From Gemmatimonadota bacterium (lineage in GTDB: Bacteria; Gemmatimonadota; Gemmatimonadetes; Palauibacterales; Palauibacteraceae): DNA of 64,000 nt. The notes under the pieces were generated by a model. The model worked only from the letters and a program-made list of their open reading frames with translations. It did no database searches and was not told the origin of the DNA. The stretch covers positions 1 through 64,000 of the forward strand of contig JBHIAV010000009.1 in assembly GCA_046758745.1 (NCBI GenBank). Direction: 5' to 3'. Numbering within the stretch: the stretch's first letter is position 1; each line of letters begins with the position of its first letter. Position numbers and translations under genes: made by a program. This document shows positions 5,508 through 63,547 of the stretch, piece by piece.

Positions 5508-6329
5508 GTGACGATTCTGGGGAGTCAGCTTCCGCCGAAGACCCTGGAGGGCTGGTACGTGCTCCATCAGCTGTTTCGCCTGGCGTGGCCGGAGCTCAAG
5601 AGGGCCTCGGGCGCGGAACGGAGCCGCATCGCAGAGGAGTTCGCGGCGCTCTTCGAGGGGTGGGCCGACCTCGGGGACGCAGGCTGGAGCGGACTGTACC
5701 GGGTGGTGGGAGGGAGCGCGGATGCCTTGGCGGTGCACTTCCGTCCCGATCTGGAGGGGTTGGGTGAGGCGGAGCGGGCGGTGAGTCGAAGCGGGCTCGG
5801 CGACTACCTCAGCCTCGCCTATGACTATGTCTCCGTCGTGGAGCTCGGACTGTATCACCTGACCGCCGAGCTGGCCGACCGGCAGGCCGACGGGGTGACC
5901 GAGGAAGAGTGGCGACGCATGCTCGACGAAGCGGCCGAGGCACAGAGGAGCACTGGCTTCGTGAAGAGACGCCTCTACCCGCGCCAGCCGGAGGACATGC
6001 CGTACGTGTGCTTCTATCCGATGAACAAGCGGCGGAACCCCTCACAGAACTGGTATCGGCTTTCGCTCGAGGATCGGAGCGCCTTGATGCACGACCACGG
6101 AAAGGTCGGGCGTCGGTACGCCGGACGGATCTCGCAGATCATCTCCGGCTCGGTGGGGCTGGACGACTGGGAGTGGGGGGTGACGCTGTTCGGCGCAGAC
6201 CCGCTGGCCTTCAAGGACGTGGTGACGGAGATGCGATACGACGAGGCCAGCGCCGTGTACGCCGAGTTCGGCCGCTTCTACGTCGGGAAGCGGGTACGAC
6301 CGGAGGAGATCCGCCGCCTCGAGATCTGA
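5508..6329 (+). CDS. chdC: coproheme decarboxylase / chlorite dismutase-family heme protein (ChdC/HemQ)
   Basis: TLEGWYVLHQ, YVSVVELGLY, CFYPMNKRR, LMHDHG, GLDDWEWGVTLF and EMRYDEASAVYAEFG; GTG at 5508 follows GAGGGAGG. Confidence 0.8.
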   Translation: MTILGSQLPPKTLEGWYVLHQLFRLAWPELKRASGAERSRIAEEFAALFEGWADLGDAGWSGLYRVVGGSADALAVHFRPDLEGLGEAERAVSRSGLGDYLSLAYDYVSVVELGLYHLTAELADRQADGVTEEEWRRMLDEAAEAQRSTGFVKRRLYPRQPEDMPYVCFYPMNKRRNPSQNWYRLSLEDRSALMHDHGKVGRRYAGRISQIISGSVGLDDWEWGVTLFGADPLAFKDVVTEMRYDEASAVYAEFGRFYVGKRVRPEEIRRLEI

Positions 6330-56745: not shown

Positions 56746-58830
56746 TTACTGCGAGGCGGAGACTACACGAACGGTCGTCTCGTCCTGCGAGAGGACGGTG
56801 ACGGGAGCCGTGAGCCCGGAGTCCGCACCGAAGAGGAAGTCGATGAGAAACTGGTCGAGCTTCCGATATAGAAGCTTCGCAGAGACACGGAGTTCCGATA
56901 CATCTGATCCGCCGGGCACCTCGAGGCTGAAGTCTTCCTTCGTCGGATTCCCGCCCACCCCCTCCCCGTCGACCGAGAGGGTGGCCGGACAGGTGAAGGC
57001 GAACTCGGCCCGATCGGAGAAACCCGGGAACAGGGCTCGCCGATATCGCACGCCGACCATCTCCCAGAGATTGTGGCGGTCGATGAGGTTACCGTACTGG
57101 TCGACCGGCTCGGCCTTGAAGATGAACGACCCCGGCTCGATGAACTGCCTTTCGTCCCTGCTGCCGGACTCGAAGATCACCTGGCCCTGCTGGTCGGTCA
57201 CCACCAGCTGCACCCACGCCTGTATGATGTCCAGGGGGCCGGTGGGGAAGTCGTGGCCCACTTTGTTGTTGGTGATGGCGACCTGGATCTCTACCTTCTG
57301 CCCGGGTTTCACCTGACGCGGCACGATCAGCTCGATGGGCACGGCCGGTCCGGATCGCCACTTGTCCGCGATCTCCGGGATATCGATTTCCCCTCTCAAC
57401 CACTTCTCCGTCAGGGCAACGTGCTCCTCCCCGCCGGGTAACTCTAGGATGAGGGGCGCGAACTGGTTGGCCGCCAGGAATCGGTGGCTCCGGTGCATCC
57501 CGTCATCGGCGGAGCGATTGTAGTCGGACTCGTCTCCGCTCGCGGGATCCGCCGACTCGGCCAGCGGCATGTGGCACTCGCGACACTCGATCGTGCGCGT
57601 GGGATCACCCGGCTCGTTCCAGCGGCTCTTTCGCCAGTTGTCGAATTGATTCTGTAGCTGGACCCACCCGACCTGGTTGATCTCCTCGTCGATGAACTGC
57701 TTGTGGCATGCGGCGCAGAATTCCGGGCTCTTGAACAGCCGGTGCTGGAGGGTTTCAACGTGGAAGCGCGGATACGCACGGATCAGGAAATGGCTCACCA
57801 GCTCCGCCGCCTCTCCCTCACGCAGCTCGAACATGTAGCGTCCGGGCCGCGTGATGACATAGTTGGCGTTCCCTTTGATGTCGGTTTCCTTGATGGCGTG
57901 ACAGACGATGCAGGAGACCCCCTCCTGATATCCGGTGAGATTGGTGAGCTTGTCCGTGAAGACGTTCTTCGTTCCCGAGAACAAGGAAATCGGATCGTGA
58001 CAACCGCCACAGTAGCGGGTCGATTCGGGGCCGTTCTGCTCGGCCATCACCTTCTGCACGGCCTGGAACGCCGGATCCATGGCCGAGTAGCGATGTGCGC
58101 TGACCTTCCACTCCCGGGCGATCTCTTCGTGACAACCCGAGCTTCCGCATGCCGTGGAGCCACCCAGCGACCGGGCATCGAGAGCGCCGCCGCTGCTCGT
58201 CGTCGCCAGGCTGGGCGCGAAGGGCCGGTCGGGACCGTAGAGATAACTGTAGCCCTCGGGGAACTCATTGATCAGGGGGACGGGGTCGTATGTGTGCACG
58301 AGCAAGGCGACGGCGGCGAAGCCGGCACCCGGTACCAGAGCGGTCCGGACGCCAAACTTCCTCTGCGCCTGCAAGACAGCCTGGACCTTCTCCATCCGGC
58401 GTGCCTTGTAGGCGCGCAGCGCCAGCGTGTATAGGTGCGGCAGGACGGAGGCGACCACGCCGAAGGTGGCGATGATGTGGATGAGGTCCCAGCCGTAGCT
58501 GATCCGGATGCCGAAGAGTGCCTGAAAGGTGAGCACCAGGCCGGAGACGATCGCCGCGACCGTAGCCGACGCGGCGAAGTAGCCGGTGAGCTTGACGTGA
58601 GACATCCTCATCGGGCGGTAGGCAAGCCAGTGGCGGAGCTGATACCAGGCGAACGGGACGAGGAAGACGAACCCGATTGCGGTGTGCAGAAGGACTATCA
58701 CCTGGTTCGGGACGCTGAACGGGAGCAGATAGATGGAGAGCCCGGTCAGCGTTTGGAACAGCAGGAGCCCTGCGACGAGGATCAACAGGGGGTGCCGCCA
58801 TTCGTCGGCTTTCCCGCGATACCCAGACAT
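56746..58830 (-). CDS. membrane-anchored multiheme c-type cytochrome (c554-like)
   Basis: About 5 N-terminal TM helices with His residues; CGSSGCH, CGGCH, CIVCH, CAACH and CRECH; Ig-like C-terminus with GHDFPTG. Confidence 0.88.
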   Translation of the reverse strand: MSGYRGKADEWRHPLLILVAGLLLFQTLTGLSIYLLPFSVPNQVIVLLHTAIGFVFLVPFAWYQLRHWLAYRPMRMSHVKLTGYFAASATVAAIVSGLVLTFQALFGIRISYGWDLIHIIATFGVVASVLPHLYTLALRAYKARRMEKVQAVLQAQRKFGVRTALVPGAGFAAVALLVHTYDPVPLINEFPEGYSYLYGPDRPFAPSLATTSSGGALDARSLGGSTACGSSGCHEEIAREWKVSAHRYSAMDPAFQAVQKVMAEQNGPESTRYCGGCHDPISLFSGTKNVFTDKLTNLTGYQEGVSCIVCHAIKETDIKGNANYVITRPGRYMFELREGEAAELVSHFLIRAYPRFHVETLQHRLFKSPEFCAACHKQFIDEEINQVGWVQLQNQFDNWRKSRWNEPGDPTRTIECRECHMPLAESADPASGDESDYNRSADDGMHRSHRFLAANQFAPLILELPGGEEHVALTEKWLRGEIDIPEIADKWRSGPAVPIELIVPRQVKPGQKVEIQVAITNNKVGHDFPTGPLDIIQAWVQLVVTDQQGQVIFESGSRDERQFIEPGSFIFKAEPVDQYGNLIDRHNLWEMVGVRYRRALFPGFSDRAEFAFTCPATLSVDGEGVGGNPTKEDFSLEVPGGSDVSELRVSAKLLYRKLDQFLIDFLFGADSGLTAPVTVLSQDETTVRVVSASQ

Positions 58831-58953
58831 CGACCTGTATGCTATATGCAGCTGTGGGACAGTGCGGAGCGAGCGCTTCGCCACTGCGCGGCGTACGGAC
58901 TCGCCGGGGAAAGCGAACCAGGCGGTCGCCTCGTACACTGGAGGAGGCATACG

Positions 58954-59253
58954 GTGAGCAGGAGCAACAGATCAGGTGGCTCCGCCGAGAGAAAGTGGAA
59001 GCGGTTCGGGTGGTTCCTGGCCGCGGGTGCGGCGCTCGTATTCCTGAACGAGCTGGTGCACCTGATCGGCTCGCTGAGCGGCCTCCACGAGCGACGGGAA
59101 CAGGGAGCCGTGTGGGCCATCCTCCTCATGATTCTCGCGATCGTGGTCACCGTCGGCGTGATCGGGGGCGGGCTGGCCTGGAGTATCCGACGCTCCCTGC
59201 GGGATGCCCCGGAGGAACCCCCGGGCCCGGAGGGGGAGGAAGATCCGGAATGA
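58954..59253 (+). CDS. small two-TM membrane protein
   Basis: GTG start after GGAGGAGG; two hydrophobic helices and an acidic tail. Confidence 0.6.
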   Translation: MSRSNRSGGSAERKWKRFGWFLAAGAALVFLNELVHLIGSLSGLHERREQGAVWAILLMILAIVVTVGVIGGGLAWSIRRSLRDAPEEPPGPEGEEDPE

Positions 59254-59412
59254 CGGGCGTGATTTGGGCCACGTCACAGCCTGCCGCCGATGTTGACCAC
59301 GACAGGTATCCATGAAAGCGAGCTTGCTTCAGTGGCGCGACCGACGCACCGCGCCCGATAGAAGAATAGGCACCGGGTGCATCCGTTGCTGTGGCGGATT
59401 CCCCGCTACGTC

Positions 59413-59433
59413 CTGTGGGGAGACTCCCCACAG
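59413..59433. terminator. perfect 9-bp hairpin between convergent genes
   Basis: CTGTGGGGA-GAC-TCCCCACAG; no U-tract. Confidence 0.3.
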
Positions 59434-59614
59434 CCCTGCCGGCTCCGTCATCGGGACTCAGCCGTTCCGGCCGTTCTTTCCGCCGGTTCCTCTTCGACTA
59501 GGACGGTCGAGTTCGACCGAGAGGACGGGGTGGCGGTGGGCGTCCGACCAAGACACCCCGCTCTGAGCGGACGGCGGTCGCGCCTCGCCAGGCCGGGCCC
59601 CGGCGGCATCAGGG

Positions 59615-60412
59615 CTACCGGTGCGGCTGACGAAACTCCTCGAGCCGCCTGCGGGCCTCCCGCATCTCCTCATCGGTGAAGAGCCCCTCCTGCTGCGCCA
59701 AAAGAAGCTCTTCGAGCTGCGACTCGGTGAGCAAACCAAGCTGGACGGCCAGCTTCCCGAAACGCTCGTCGGGCCGTTTCTTCTGTTCGAGCAGTACTCG
59801 GGCCACGTCGGCCGGCCCGAGCATGTTGCGGACGAGCGCTACCGTACCGAGGGCGAAGTGGCGCGGAATCGGCACGTCGCGGGGCGGATGCGGGCTGGGG
59901 GCCTCCGCCGGTGCAGCCGTACCCACGTCCGGGTCAAACCAGTGCTGCGACCTGTGAAACCAGGACCGGCGGCCTACGGGTAGAATCCTGAAGAACGCTC
60001 TGAGGCGCTTTTCCACGATGTGATGGTCTTCCTCGCGCCACCGGGCATCCCGCTGCCTGCGCCGAGCCGAAGCATCCATCAGCACCCGGTTGATGTCCGC
60101 GATCCGCTTCTGTTCCGCCAGGATGTCAGTCGGAACGCGGGCTAGGCTTTCGGCGAACTCTCCTTCATCGACGACGAAGTCCCCGGCTCGCACGGCATCA
60201 GGCCGACTCGAACCCCTGGGCTCCTCGAAGAACACCCAAAGGTTGCGGAGGTGTAGCAGCCACGACTCCACAAGGGCACGTTTCGCAAGCGCGTCCGCCG
60301 GCTTGAGCCTCTTGTGTCGATAGCGCTCCCCTATCGCCATGAACATCCAGATCTCATAGTCGACGTCTTCCGCAACCGTATGGAGCGTCTCGGTCGCAAC
60401 CACGCTTTTCAC
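59615..60412 (-). CDS. hypothetical protein with a HEPN-like helical N-terminus and tandem MshEN-like C-terminal motifs
   Basis: YEIWMF...VESWLLHLRNLWVFF...DAVRAGDF; ALGTVALVRNMLGPADVARVLLEQ and RFGKLAVQLGLLTESQLEELLLAQ. Confidence 0.65.
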   Translation of the reverse strand: MKSVVATETLHTVAEDVDYEIWMFMAIGERYRHKRLKPADALAKRALVESWLLHLRNLWVFFEEPRGSSRPDAVRAGDFVVDEGEFAESLARVPTDILAEQKRIADINRVLMDASARRRQRDARWREEDHHIVEKRLRAFFRILPVGRRSWFHRSQHWFDPDVGTAAPAEAPSPHPPRDVPIPRHFALGTVALVRNMLGPADVARVLLEQKKRPDERFGKLAVQLGLLTESQLEELLLAQQEGLFTDEEMREARRRLEEFRQPHR

Positions 60413-60559
60413 CCTGCTGCTCCGTGTGCGGGTTGGCGCAATGCGTGGAATCGGCCCTTCTACCTCTTTGGATGCCGCTCAGCTCCCGAACCCTTCAAGG
60501 CAGCTCCCCGCCCCTCCTCCCTCCACATCTTCACGAGACTGCGAATCGTCCTCTACGGC

Positions 60560-61618
60560 TCAGAGACAGGGCGCAGCGGCCGGAATACGGAGGCAGACCT
60601 TCCGCGCCTCCCTCTCCAGGAAATCCACCAGTCGCTCGAAGGGATCGAACCCCACCACGCGCCGTGCATCGGTCACGAAGTTGGAAAGGGCGTTGATGTC
60701 GTAATAGCTGACCCCGCCGTCCCGATCGTCCACCAGGAACTCGACGCCGCCCACCTCGATGTTCGCGGCCGCAGCGATTCGCTTCACGGCTGAGATCACC
60801 GCCTCCGGGGGGCGGCACGCCTCCACACGCGCAGCAAAGCCCGGCGGGACGGAGGAGGCCTCTCCCTTTGCGCGATCGGTCTCGGCGACAGCTCCCGGGC
60901 CACTCTCGACCACGGTCACCGAGCCGGCCCCGGCGACGGCTTCCGGGCCGGCGTCCGGGACCGGATGGCAGATGTCCGCCGGGCAGAGGTTGAAGCCCTC
61001 TTCGGGGGGATAGACCCTGATGGCGTAGAGAAACTCCCCGTCGAGAAGCTCGACCCGGGTGATGTAGCCTCCTCGGGCCGGAAGGAACTCCTGCACCAGC
61101 CCCGTGCGGTCCGGCCCGAGGTCCAGGCCTCCGTCGCCCGCGGCTTCCCGGAGGGACTCCACATCCTCGAAGCGGGCGATGCGGGCCCCGCTTCCACCGA
61201 TGTTCGGCTTCACCACCACCGGAAAACGCAGCCCCGACGCGGCAACGGGAGCCTCGTAGGGCGAGTTGATCACCCGGGTGCGCGGATACGGCAGGCCGAG
61301 CGAGTCGAGGAGAGCGACTTGCCTGGCCTTCGAAATCTCCACCCGGAATGCCTCGAGGCCGTTTATCACACGGACCCCCCGTCGCTCGAGATGCTCCAGA
61401 TAGGCGAGCGTGTAGAAGATCGCGTGACCGCTCCCCCTGAGATACGCGGACGGGCTCATCCGATTGAGGAGAACGGAGTAGTCGGCGTCGCCTTCCGCCG
61501 GATCGAAGCGGTGGCTCCTCGCATCGATCGGCACGTACGGCGTGCCGCGTCGATCGAGTGCCGTGAAGAGCGGCCGAAACCACTCGGAATGCTCGTAATA
61601 GATCGCGATCGGTAGCAT
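60560..61618 (-). CDS. ATP-grasp (RimK/glutathione synthase-like) ligase
   Basis: NRMSPSAYLRG, ISKARQ, FPVVVKPNIGGSGA, LVQEF, GGVEFL and YDINALSNF; ATG after AAGGTGAGG. Confidence 0.88.
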   Translation of the reverse strand: MLPIAIYYEHSEWFRPLFTALDRRGTPYVPIDARSHRFDPAEGDADYSVLLNRMSPSAYLRGSGHAIFYTLAYLEHLERRGVRVINGLEAFRVEISKARQVALLDSLGLPYPRTRVINSPYEAPVAASGLRFPVVVKPNIGGSGARIARFEDVESLREAAGDGGLDLGPDRTGLVQEFLPARGGYITRVELLDGEFLYAIRVYPPEEGFNLCPADICHPVPDAGPEAVAGAGSVTVVESGPGAVAETDRAKGEASSVPPGFAARVEACRPPEAVISAVKRIAAAANIEVGGVEFLVDDRDGGVSYYDINALSNFVTDARRVVGFDPFERLVDFLEREARKVCLRIPAAAPCL

Positions 61619-61684
61619 CTGCCTCACCTTCGAAAGCGCTTGGGAGGACGGCGCACTCGGTCCGTCATCCTCGGCACAACCCCC

Positions 61685-61712
61685 AACAAAAAACCGCTCA
61701 TTCGAGCGGTTT
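61685..61712 (-). terminator. intrinsic terminator in the leader of the ATP-grasp gene (attenuator)
   Basis: Minus strand CCGCTC-GAAT-GAGCGG followed by TTTTTTGTT; upstream AAA can extend the stem. Confidence 0.8.
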
Positions 61713-61741
61713 CGGGTCGGTGCGATCGGAACGTGTAACTT

Positions 61742-61888
61742 CTACGTGACTCCTTCGGGCCGGCTCGAAGCCGCACAGGCGCTGGGGCGACAGCAACACC
61801 AGCCACAGCAGTGGCCGCCCCGGCACCCGTCGACGGCCAGGCACAGCTGTCCCGGCCACGTCATTGCGAGCCCGTGACGGCCCATCAT
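61742..61888 (-). CDS. Cys-rich leader peptide (putative cysteine-sensing attenuator)
   Basis: GGAGG-N6-ATG; MMGRHGLAMTWPGQLCLAVDGCRGGHCCGWCCCRPSACAASSRPEGVT* has 8 Cys; stop lies about 30 nt before the terminator. Confidence 0.65.
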   Translation of the reverse strand: MMGRHGLAMTWPGQLCLAVDGCRGGHCCGWCCCRPSACAASSRPEGVT

Positions 61889-62198
61889 CAGCGGCCTCCG
61901 CAGCGGATCAGAAACCATGTCGGTACCACCCCCTGCAGGGGAAGACGCAAAGCCCGCCAAACAATCTAGTACGGGGGCAGCCGGGTCGCACCCCGCTGTG
62001 GCTGCGGGCCGTCTGGCCGGCCTCCCGGTTCCGCCCCAGCGGTTGACAGGCTCCTGCGGGTGCGCCCGGTGCATGGCTGTCTCCGGGACACGACCCGCCG
62101 CCCTGCTTCTTGAATTCGCGCTGTTTTTTCGCTGCGCACGACATTTTCTAGCGACGAGAGTCGGGCGCGCTGCGACGATTCCCTTCCGCAACGCGAAT

Positions 62199-62225
62199 TA
62201 ACGCGGCTTATCGCCAGCACTTACG
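62199..62225. promoter_or_regulatory. TAAC-N17-(G/C)TTA motif upstream of the second tadG-like gene
   Basis: TAACGCG-N11-GCACTTACG, matching 21267-21293 at both ends. Confidence 0.4.
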
Positions 62226-62249
62226 AGATCGGCGTTTCTCCAGAAAGTC

Positions 62250-62265
62250 AGGCACTCCAGTTGCG
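62250..62265 (+). promoter_or_regulatory. putative sigma54 (-24/-12) promoter
   Basis: AGGCACTCCAGTTGCG has GG-N10-GC with GGCAC and TTGC, about 120 nt before the tadG-like start. Confidence 0.6.
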
Positions 62266-62383
62266 GCCAAAGCCGGACGCCAGCAGTCGCACGCACACCA
62301 GCCCTGCGGGGGCCCACCTGGCTGGAGGCCGCAAACGGCGCACGATGGCGGGATGCAGGGCGTTCTCTCCCGGAGGCAGATCG

Positions 62384-63547
62384 ATGATCAGGAACCTGAA
62401 GAGGCTGGTCTCCGACGAACGAGGAGCCGTCCTCCTGCTGGTGGCCGGCAGCATGATGGCGCTGCTCTCCGTGGTGGCCTTGGCAGTGGATTTCGGCATG
62501 CTGACCGTCGCTCGAACCGAAGCGCAGCGCGTGGCCGACCTGTCGGCCCTCGCCGGGGCGGGGGGACTGCTTCAGTCACCGGGAAACGAGCCCCTGGCTC
62601 GCGCACTTGCCGTCGACTACGCCTTGCGCAATGACATCCGACACAACGAGGCGATCGTGCAGCCGACCGACGTCGAGGTCGACCTGGTCAATGATCGGGT
62701 GACGGTCACAGTGTATCGCACGATCGAGCGGGGCAACCCCGTCAACACCTTCTTCGCACGCGTGTTCGGGGTGAACGGCGTGAGCATCGCCGCGCGAGCC
62801 ACCGCCGAAGCGAGCCCGGCCGGGGGAGTGAACTGTCTCCTGCCGCTCGCCCTCCCGGATCGCTGGTTCGAGGCGGGGGGACCGGGCAACGACCCCGACG
62901 ACTATAACGCCGACCACGGCGACTACTACGTCCCGTGGGATCCGGCCGCGCCGAGCGCGCCGTACACCGGATACAGCGAAGCCGATGTCGGGGTGCGGAT
63001 CATGATCAAGGCCAATACGGGGCCCGGCAGCATGAACCCGAGCTGGTACTTTCCGTGGGCTCCCCCCGATCCGGACTCGACGGATCCCGCCGGCGTGAGG
63101 GGCGCGGAGCTCTACTCGCTGCGGATCAGCGGATGCATCGCGACCGACAAGGGCTACGTGTTCGGGCCGGGCTCCGTCGTCGACACGGAGCCCGGCAGCA
63201 TGACGGGACCGACCAAGGCGGGCTTCCAGAGGCTCATCGCGAAAGATCCGAACGCGGCGTGGAACACGGGCATGAATTGCGTCACGGACGCGCTGTACCA
63301 GTTGAGCAACGATCCGACCTACTGCCGCGGGAGCGCCCGGGTCCGCGCGATGCCCATGTTCAACCCTACCGAGGAGCCGGATCCCGGTAGAAAGCCCTTC
63401 ACCTTCACGAACTTCGTCGGCGTGTTCGTCGAGGAGATCGAGGGGAACAAGATCTACGCGCGGTTCACCGGCTACACGGGCGTCACGTTCGGTGGAACGG
63501 GTTCGCCCTCCGCCGCGCTGTTCAAGAAGCTGCAGCTCATCGACTAG
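62384..63547 (+). CDS. TadG-like Flp pilus assembly protein (paralog of 23255-24406)
   Basis: SDERG|AVLLLVAGSMMALLSVVALAVDFG...QRVADLSALAGA; RBS GGAGG. Confidence 0.87.
   Translation: MIRNLKRLVSDERGAVLLLVAGSMMALLSVVALAVDFGMLTVARTEAQRVADLSALAGAGGLLQSPGNEPLARALAVDYALRNDIRHNEAIVQPTDVEVDLVNDRVTVTVYRTIERGNPVNTFFARVFGVNGVSIAARATAEASPAGGVNCLLPLALPDRWFEAGGPGNDPDDYNADHGDYYVPWDPAAPSAPYTGYSEADVGVRIMIKANTGPGSMNPSWYFPWAPPDPDSTDPAGVRGAELYSLRISGCIATDKGYVFGPGSVVDTEPGSMTGPTKAGFQRLIAKDPNAAWNTGMNCVTDALYQLSNDPTYCRGSARVRAMPMFNPTEEPDPGRKPFTFTNFVGVFVEEIEGNKIYARFTGYTGVTFGGTGSPSAALFKKLQLID

Follow-up and report, generated by a model that had tools for sequence, protein, structure and literature searches.

Why should a bacterium place a short open reading frame rich in cysteine codons, and behind it a GC-rich hairpin with a tract of T's, directly in front of a gene for an ATP-grasp ligase? 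The question is raised by a locus in a stretch of 64,000 nucleotides from a Gemmatimonadota bacterium of the family Palauibacteraceae (GenBank assembly GCA_046758745.1, contig JBHIAV010000009.1, positions 1 to 64,000), which we refer to as the window. The locus was read on the minus strand, and the coordinates of all its elements are window positions. We think it quite likely that this is a ribosome-mediated transcription attenuator which senses the supply of charged tRNA-Cys before the ATP-grasp gene; in many relatives tRNA-Met is probably sensed as well. The interpretation is supported at the level of the family, and from the sequences we infer the response to cysteine, the translation of the leader, the stalling of the ribosome and the order of events.

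The leader begins with a Shine-Dalgarno-like GGAGG (61895..61899, minus strand) which is followed, after 6 nt, by an ATG at 61888. From there an open reading frame (ORF) of 48 codons runs to a TAG (61744-61742); the whole leader ORF covers 61742..61888 on the minus strand and its product is MMGRHGLAMTWPGQLCLAVDGCRGGHCCGWCCCRPSACAASSRPEGVT. Eight codons specify cysteine (codons 16, 22, 27, 28, 31, 32, 33 and 38). Five of them are packed into the seven codons 27-33 (TGC TGT .. .. TGT TGC TGT, 61790..61810, minus strand), the putative regulatory run, while the extra three lie outside it at 61843-61841, 61825-61823 and 61777-61775. A preliminary description of this DNA had claimed both the GGAGG-N6-ATG arrangement and the 48-residue frame with eight cysteines including HCCGWCCC, and direct reading of the sequence bears both out. 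TGT accounts for four of the eight cysteine codons of the leader; in long open frames of the same genome it makes up about 24% (TGT:TGC 3153:9773). A word search among 5.8 billion proteins returned no homologue of the 48-residue peptide, and neither Pfam nor NCBIfam gave a match to it; the lack of a homologue is what would be expected of a leader. The upstream neighbour, at 62261-63547 on the plus strand, is a Tad-pilus gene (TadE/G-like Flp-pilus assembly protein, PF13400, 1.4e-8) and is divergent, so the leader is the first element of its own transcript and the hairpin does not end any other gene. A sigma-70 promoter scan of 59000-63000, including the roughly 370 nt that separate the leader from the Tad gene, gave no match. 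No Rfam family matched the leader in 60000-63000, where a SAM-II riboswitch was also absent; a match to asX2 on the opposite strand, obtained there with E up to 1, scored 26.8 bits against a gathering score of 70 and was taken as chance. The sequencing runs containing the stretch are four DNA metagenome runs from one study and no RNA runs. Elsewhere in the same genome there are many frames that look similar at first sight: 171 Cys-dense frame ends were counted, six of them with a hairpin, and the window leader alone was convincing, combining a Cys run with a proper terminator. One candidate for a second leader, C86, proved to be a shadow frame of a small hydrophobic ORF.

The hairpin behind the leader ORF has the form of an intrinsic terminator (61683..61720, minus strand). 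Its 10-bp stem, GAAACCGCUC/GAGCGGUUUU, closes a GAAU loop and is extended by an outer CCGAC/GUUGG helix; the 5' arm lies at 61713-61704, the loop at 61703-61700 and the 3' arm at 61699-61690, followed by UUUUUUGUU with a U tract to 61688. The stem begins about 28 nt past the leader stop. When the 46 nt of 61725-61680 were folded, the energy was -22.7 kcal/mol against an average of -12.1 for shuffled sequences (z -4.0; none of 200 shuffles was as stable), and thus the GC hairpin with U tract of the preliminary description stands, with its stem at 61713-61690. A simple terminator scan of 59000-63000 did not list the hairpin, although folding shows it clearly; in our reading, the scan missed it because the G-U extension of the stem consumes the T tract. 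The ATP-grasp gene (60560..61618, minus strand) follows shortly afterwards, as had been described: its ATG at 61618, the start which aligns with the orthologues, is located about 69 nt past the U tract, with a GTG at 61627 as an alternative. Between the terminator and this start, the folds also contain a second, smaller hairpin at 61641-61668 (minus strand; GAGGAUGACGG...CCGUCCUC).

Is this layout peculiar to one contig? A search with the ATP-grasp protein covered 41 genomes from its family and order; 20 gave some match and seven, its own not counted, a strong one. The upstream DNA of seven loci from these genomes was read. A Cys-rich short ORF and a GC-rich hairpin with T's precede the ATP-grasp gene in L001 (the window's own), L002, L003, L005 and L007, with the Cys clusters CRCCTC, CPCVCPC, CRCTSCRC and CACSTCACTCSC. 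The ATP-grasp protein of L007 is merely 33% identical, yet both leader and hairpin are present, and in L002, from the same order, the layout is like that of the window, also without the monooxygenase gene that accompanies the ATP-grasp gene in most relatives (see below). In L004 another gene takes the position immediately upstream, and L008 is a fragment. A wider scan, with one genome per species, confirmed at least 594 relatives, of which the best 80 loci were kept (L022-L101). When windows with at least four Cys in 10 residues were counted in all six frames of these 80 loci, 20 lay on the coding strand within 250 nt upstream of the ATP-grasp start, compared with 0-6 in the other upstream bins and 0-3 in the bins of the minus strand. 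A secondary peak of 10 at +1750 arises where the next gene encodes a conserved LLLLQ stretch, which reads as Cys-rich out of frame. Typical ends of the leaders are ...MAMCCCMCMCTRERPVLSNFS, ...CACSYCCMCRLLPRGEAG..., ...CACCCCGDQ..., ...MYYCCCCCIFG... or ...MCMCCCPRAR..., and the Cys runs of the relatives are 3-7 residues long.

Two detectors were applied to these loci. The first, requiring a hairpin of -10 kcal/mol or better and a T tract, was positive for 27 of 45 candidate leaders, 23 of them from L022-L101. The second, which asked for a best hairpin no weaker than -12 kcal/mol, five or more T's, three or more Cys in eight residues and a start codon, was positive for 21 of the 80 loci (8/27 in Gemmatimonadota, 12/36 in Acidobacteriota, 0/16 in other phyla, plus L082). 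Together they find the arrangement at 30 of 80 loci: 17 of 36 in Acidobacteriota, 12 of 27 in Gemmatimonadota, the rest being one doubtful case. L037, L041 and L082 are the doubtful loci within the 30, and L065, judged by eye, seems to add another case. Cys-rich upstream ORFs with terminators, which the preliminary description had suggested looking for before orthologues, therefore recur at about 30 of the 80 loci, in Acidobacteriota and Gemmatimonadota. The leader-bearing loci are scattered over most clades of a quick ATP-grasp protein tree, and its well-supported branches force at least 10 changes, counted with L037, L041 and L082 labelled as lacking a leader.

One indication of a switch comes from the RNA between the Cys run and the terminator. 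For each locus, this RNA was paired with the terminator 5' arm and compared with dinucleotide shuffles of this upstream RNA. With the stem arm alone, the mean z was -1.70 and p<0.05 was reached in 12 of 27 loci; with the arm plus 8 nt of flank, the mean z was -1.78 and the median -2.02, with p<0.05 in 14 of 26 loci and a Wilcoxon p of 2e-5 (L067, identical to L003, was dropped from this set). When the arms were swapped between loci, the own arm reached 0.532 of the perfect-duplex energy compared with 0.459 for foreign arms, its median rank was 5 of 25, and none of 5000 permutations scored as high. Such matching to the own arm amounts to covariation: the terminators differ, and upstream of each lies a copy of its 3' arm. 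Pairs of 5' arm and matching segment are, for instance, GGCCGCTC with GAGCGGCC, GCCGGCCCCTCTC with GGAGAGGCGGGCCTGGCC, AAAAACCGCTTGT with GACAAGCGGTTTG and GCCGCGACCCCC with AGGGGCGCGGCG. The geometry is similar from locus to locus as well. For 19 loci whose runs contain three or more Cys, the distance from the first Cys codon to the start of the matching segment (segment 2) has a median of 30 nt and a range of 22-43; segment 2 has a median length of 13 nt, its end precedes that of the stop codon by a median of 18 nt, and the terminator stem follows the stop at a median of 27 nt. At this level the trp/his-type layout claimed in the preliminary description holds, since the ORF, the Cys run, the terminator and the matched antiterminator recur across relatives.

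In the window, the candidate 5' strand of the antiterminator, segment 2, is formed by the last leader codons (61759..61777, minus strand). Its proposed partner, segment 3 (61703..61720, minus strand), comprises the terminator 5' arm with its 5' flank and would be common to both structures. The preliminary description had proposed that 61777-61760 can pair with the terminator's 5' arm, and indeed the best duplex for this arm is 61777-61760 with 61720-61703 (-16.4 kcal/mol). The same pairing is the minimum-free-energy fold (-24.3 kcal/mol) when a ribosome is placed on codons 27-33 and the 3' arm has not yet been made; the duplex alone contributes -16.0 kcal/mol within this 3'-arm-less fold. In its relative position, segment 2 of the window also agrees with the segments that reach significance in the relatives.

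According to the model we propose, transcription would begin upstream of 61900 on the minus strand, and a ribosome would load at the GGAGG-N6-ATG and translate the 48 codons. With ample cysteine, the ribosome would reach the TAG and cover segment 2 (about 61777-61759) or sit in the adjoining loop, while the polymerase synthesizes the terminator 27-30 nt downstream; the stem-loop 61713-61690 and its U tract would then stop transcription ahead of the ATP-grasp gene. Under a shortage of cysteine or sulfur, the ribosome would stall at 61810-61790 and leave segment 2 free to pair with 61720-61703; the terminator would be blocked and the ATP-grasp gene transcribed. The position of the ribosome would thus decide the outcome: stalled at the first Cys codons, it leaves segment 2 free, and near the stop it covers this segment or occupies the antiterminator loop.

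What would such a switch control? The regulated gene encodes an ATP-grasp ligase of 352 aa, RimK/LysX-like and belonging to an uncharacterised family. Its match to TIGR00768, the RimK family alpha-L-glutamate ligase, is 1.2e-15 (57.6 bits, under the curated cutoff of 143.4); Pfam ATP-grasp matches are weak and below threshold, and the PDB profile matches to RimK and LysX cover the central ATP-binding part only. At E<=1e-20, the protein has at least 8000 database relatives, which are named at best 'glutathione synthase/RimK-type ligase-like ATP-grasp enzyme' or 'hypothetical protein'; the ESM Atlas is equally generic. In an alignment with the orthologues, residues about 225-265 (60860-60990, minus strand) form a Gly/Ala/Pro-rich insertion of variable length. 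More informative is the company that the gene keeps. In 72 of the 80 loci, it is immediately followed by a gene for a luciferase-like monooxygenase of the SfnG/SsuD-like type, using reduced flavin mononucleotide (FMNH2); of the eight loci without it, four have less than 700 nt of downstream DNA. The best NCBIfam match of this monooxygenase is the dimethylsulfone monooxygenase SfnG (6e-75, 252.8 bits, below the cutoff of 383), and it also matches the alkanesulfonate monooxygenase SsuD (2e-56) and PF00296 (1.5e-64). Nine loci have, upstream, a gene for an SsuE-like NADPH-FMN reductase (TIGR03567, 1.2e-39, under its cutoff). In addition, a SAM-II riboswitch (SAM_alpha, RF00521) lies upstream of the operon in two of the 38 loci scanned with Rfam. 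In L022 (3660-3735, plus strand; 45 bits against a gathering score of 36), it is located between a TTGACA-18 nt-TATACT pair and the Cys leader; the two elements stand in tandem, and an in-frame GTG of the leader frame lies inside the riboswitch 3' strand. In L056 (2326-2400, plus strand; 38.7 bits) there is no Cys leader. The monooxygenase partner and the SAM-II riboswitches point to an operon that answers to sulfur status, as signs independent of the leader. A SAM-II look-alike in L093 fell short of the Rfam gathering score.

Several observations weigh against this reading, above all for the window itself. The window duplex does not stand out from shuffled sequences (-16.4 against -12.9 +/- 2.6 kcal/mol, z -1.34, p 0.10, 2000 shuffles), and 10 of 25 foreign arms pair as well as the window's own arm. 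The pairing proposed in the preliminary description thus stands as the best duplex and as the 3'-arm-less fold, but not as pairing beyond chance in the window alone, and the window's antiterminator rests mainly on analogy with the relatives. Folding with ribosome-masked segments gave a similarly divided answer: the antiterminator forms when the 3' arm is absent, but the terminator survives every constrained fold, with an equilibrium energy of -35.8 kcal/mol compared with -24.7 for the antiterminator state. Since the terminator state dominates at equilibrium, read-through must be kinetic. A terminator which is the more stable structure is also the ordering found in classical attenuators such as trp. 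Among the relatives, the reversed-arm control was also negative (mean z -0.52, Wilcoxon p 0.03), a control which is imperfect because the arms are partly palindromic. For eight of the 19 loci behind the geometry figures, more than 21 nt separate the end of segment 2 from the downstream end of the stop codon, a distance at which a ribosome that has reached the stop would not directly cover the segment. Pairing of segment 1 with segment 2, the anti-antiterminator, was undetected over 26 loci (mean z -0.39), and for this reason an untranslated leader would be read through; the device looks three-segmented, with the ribosome itself blocking antitermination. The leader is absent in about 45 of the 80 relatives, and a Shine-Dalgarno-like 4-mer precedes the start codon in only eight of 26 leaders, the GGAGG of the window being among the best. 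As the loci are related and not independent, the p-values of the pairing statistics, and those of the codon and Met statistics given below, are overstated. Finally, in a quick tree the ATP-grasp protein of the window belongs to a divergent clade with L082, L097, L098 and L101, and the monooxygenase partner was not found in this clade; nor was it found, with this query, in the window or in its own genome, which is 87% complete. The neighbours of the gene in L097 include nothing related to sulfur. The preliminary description had assigned the ATP-grasp family to sulfur or thiol metabolism. The operon context of the relatives (72 of 80 loci with the monooxygenase, nine with the SsuE-like reductase, two with SAM-II) speaks for this role, but the gene of the window lacks the monooxygenase partner.

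Could the Cys-rich ORF instead encode a functional small peptide? It might be metallothionein-like, a precursor of a ribosomally synthesized and post-translationally modified peptide (RiPP), or a substrate or carrier of the ATP-grasp enzyme, and the hairpin would then set the ratio of peptide to enzyme mRNA. Motifs of the C-x-C and CC type are indeed similar to those of metal-binding peptides, the ORF adjoins the ATP-grasp gene, their association is conserved, and a hairpin after the precursor gene is usual in RiPP clusters. We nevertheless consider a peptide product unlikely. The leader peptides have nothing in common beyond the Cys/Met run and a tail derived from the terminator arm, and no homologue was found; the recurrent tail 'ERP' is encoded by GAGCGGCC, which is a copy of the terminator 3' arm. 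In four close kin from the Angelobacter group of Terriglobia (L028, L030, L031 and L034), the leader codons vary at the N-terminal end, while hardly any change is seen between the start of the Cys run and the end of the terminator. The invariance extends to all three codon positions, which argues for a constraint on the RNA and not on the peptide. Where the gene for the SsuE-like reductase precedes the ATP-grasp gene, in nine Gemmatimonadota loci, the Cys/Met short ORF with its GGCCGCGA... hairpin is located before ssuE instead in six of the nine (e.g. MLACACCHSPLMMRERE..., MMMCGCCHLSGMMCCAEERTITP), and the position of the leader tracks the first gene of the operon and not the ATP-grasp gene. 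A peptide needed by the enzyme would also be hard to reconcile with the roughly 45 of 80 ATP-grasp loci that have no such ORF, or with L056, where a SAM-II riboswitch takes the place of the leader. The loci show neither a conserved precursor family nor a maturase that always occurs with a precursor, two criteria for RiPP and graspetide clusters, and the ATP-grasp enzyme is RimK/LysX-like by NCBIfam and PDB profiles, in a comparison which contained no graspetide maturase.

The codons of the leaders are instead consistent with a sensor. In the last 40 codons of 26 leaders, TGT and TGC occur 89:44; the ATP-grasp and monooxygenase ORFs of these loci use them 34:107 (Fisher test, odds ratio 6.4, p 8e-13). 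Methionine is also concentrated in the runs: of the residues other than Cys, 31 of 123 are Met there, compared with 13 of 430 in the tails (odds ratio 10.8). Cys and Met may be closely interleaved, as in MCCCMCMC. This may mean that both sulfur amino acids are sensed, or that some of the Met codons are internal or true start codons.

Another explanation is that cysteine is sensed by stalling, as in our attenuator model, but that the output is translational or Rho-dependent. A precedent exists: Canestrari et al. 2020 (10.1101/834739) demonstrated translational attenuation in mycobacteria by leaderless polycysteine ORFs, in which a downstream ribosome-binding site is unmasked, and stated that cysteine attenuation mediated by an upstream ORF was previously undescribed; the case is cited in a 2026 paper on M. 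tuberculosis (PMC13236596). The mycobacterial ORFs resemble the present leaders in that a Cys tract in a short upstream ORF senses cysteine for the downstream operon, but they are leaderless, act translationally and have no terminator, whereas the window has a Shine-Dalgarno sequence and a terminator between ORF and gene. The thermodynamic dominance of the window terminator and the weakness of its antiterminator would suit a mechanism of the mycobacterial kind. Transcription attenuation, on the other hand, better accounts for a canonical hairpin and U tract at constant spacing in the leader-bearing loci, for an antiterminator matched to each terminator and for an ATP-grasp start that lies some 69 nt beyond the U tract, and a translational or Rho-dependent output seems to us quite unlikely. 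That the locus is only a chance open frame followed by an unregulated terminator or an RNA-stabilising stem is very improbable, since, although GC-rich DNA yields many spurious frames (such as the 171 Cys-dense frame ends of the window's genome and the shadow frames of the monooxygenase gene), the Cys-dense frames are enriched at one position (20 against 0-6 per bin), the elements keep their order and distances in both phyla, the leaders show a strong codon bias, the antiterminator covaries with the terminator and, within its own genome, a Cys run with a proper terminator occurs at the window locus only.

How does the proposed attenuator compare with known systems? It shares with the trp, his, leu, thr and ilv attenuators of enterobacteria a short ORF with a run of the sensed codon, an intrinsic terminator and an alternative helix involving the terminator 5' arm. 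It differs in that cysteine, and perhaps methionine, would be sensed, that the operon downstream is an uncharacterised ATP-grasp/monooxygenase operon and not one for the biosynthesis of the sensed amino acid, and that the leaders belong to Acidobacteriota and Gemmatimonadota. The helix between segments 1 and 2, undetected here, is a feature of the trp type and not of every attenuator. Classical attenuation has rarely been documented for cysteine, and the remark in the preliminary description that Cys-codon leaders are little documented is fair. Besides the mycobacterial case, which was tested, there are two predicted precedents. Seliverstov et al. 2005 (PMC1262725) predicted leader peptides with Cys runs before actinobacterial cys/cbs operons; these also have runs of Cys codons in short ORFs upstream of genes for sulfur amino acids, but they lacked terminators, and their mode of action was left open, with Rho being suggested. 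Brewer et al. 2021 (PMC8632094) described the uORFC-8-2 motif of Rhodobacterales, a predicted Cys-Cys upstream ORF with a terminator before cysS. It resembles the present leaders in its tandem Cys codons, in having a terminator stem and U run, and in the predicted mechanism, attenuation mediated by the ribosome, but it differs in taxon, in having cysS downstream and in having two Cys codons compared with our runs of 3-7, and we found no sequence relation to it. The SAM-II riboswitches of L022 and L056 also place this ATP-grasp/monooxygenase operon under a cis-acting RNA that responds to a sulfur metabolite, but they sense the metabolite directly and not via the ribosome, and SAM-II is absent from the window. 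In the literature searched, which left most subscription journals outside, we came across no Cys leader described for Acidobacteriota or Gemmatimonadota, and the same search for the ATP-grasp family together with sulfur starvation returned one unrelated paper.

Why might bacteria have such a leader? We suggest, tentatively, that it could belong to a widespread and as yet undescribed class in Acidobacteriota and Gemmatimonadota which reads Cys and Met codons and marks a pathway of organosulfur assimilation during sulfur starvation. If so, a class that prefers the slow TGT codon and is stacked behind SAM-II in some genomes would represent a two-input sulfur logic, and the orphan ATP-grasp family, with its at least 8000 relatives, would form with the SfnG-like monooxygenase a previously unrecognised pathway of soil bacteria. 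The leader would then act as a regulatory label, 'made when sulfur amino acids are short', for enzymes otherwise called hypothetical or RimK-like and for their monooxygenase partner, and the search for the substrates of both could be narrowed to organosulfur scavenging or thiol metabolism. Classical attenuation would be extended to cysteine in two abundant but poorly studied soil phyla. The interleaved Met codons, the bias to TGT and the tandem with SAM-II would offer testable design features of amino-acid sensing by the ribosome.

Some further features were noted around these loci. In one Pyrinomonadaceae locus (L063), a fluoride riboswitch (RF01734, 44.5 bits; 6168-6238, plus strand) is located about 2 kb downstream of the ATP-grasp gene and is unrelated to the leader. 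In the window, an ORF of 265 aa (59615-60412, minus strand) stands directly after the ATP-grasp gene, at the position of the monooxygenase gene in the relatives; it belongs to no Pfam family, and its C-terminal part has a sub-cutoff match to the MshE-related cyclic-di-GMP-binding motif (NF053729, 9.6e-6). Two genes downstream of the ATP-grasp gene and on the same strand, the frame at 56746-58950 (minus strand) encodes a probable multihaem cytochrome of 734 aa, with membrane-like segments at the N terminus, several CxxCH haem motifs and Pfam matches of the Cytochrome_C554 and MtrC-like type.

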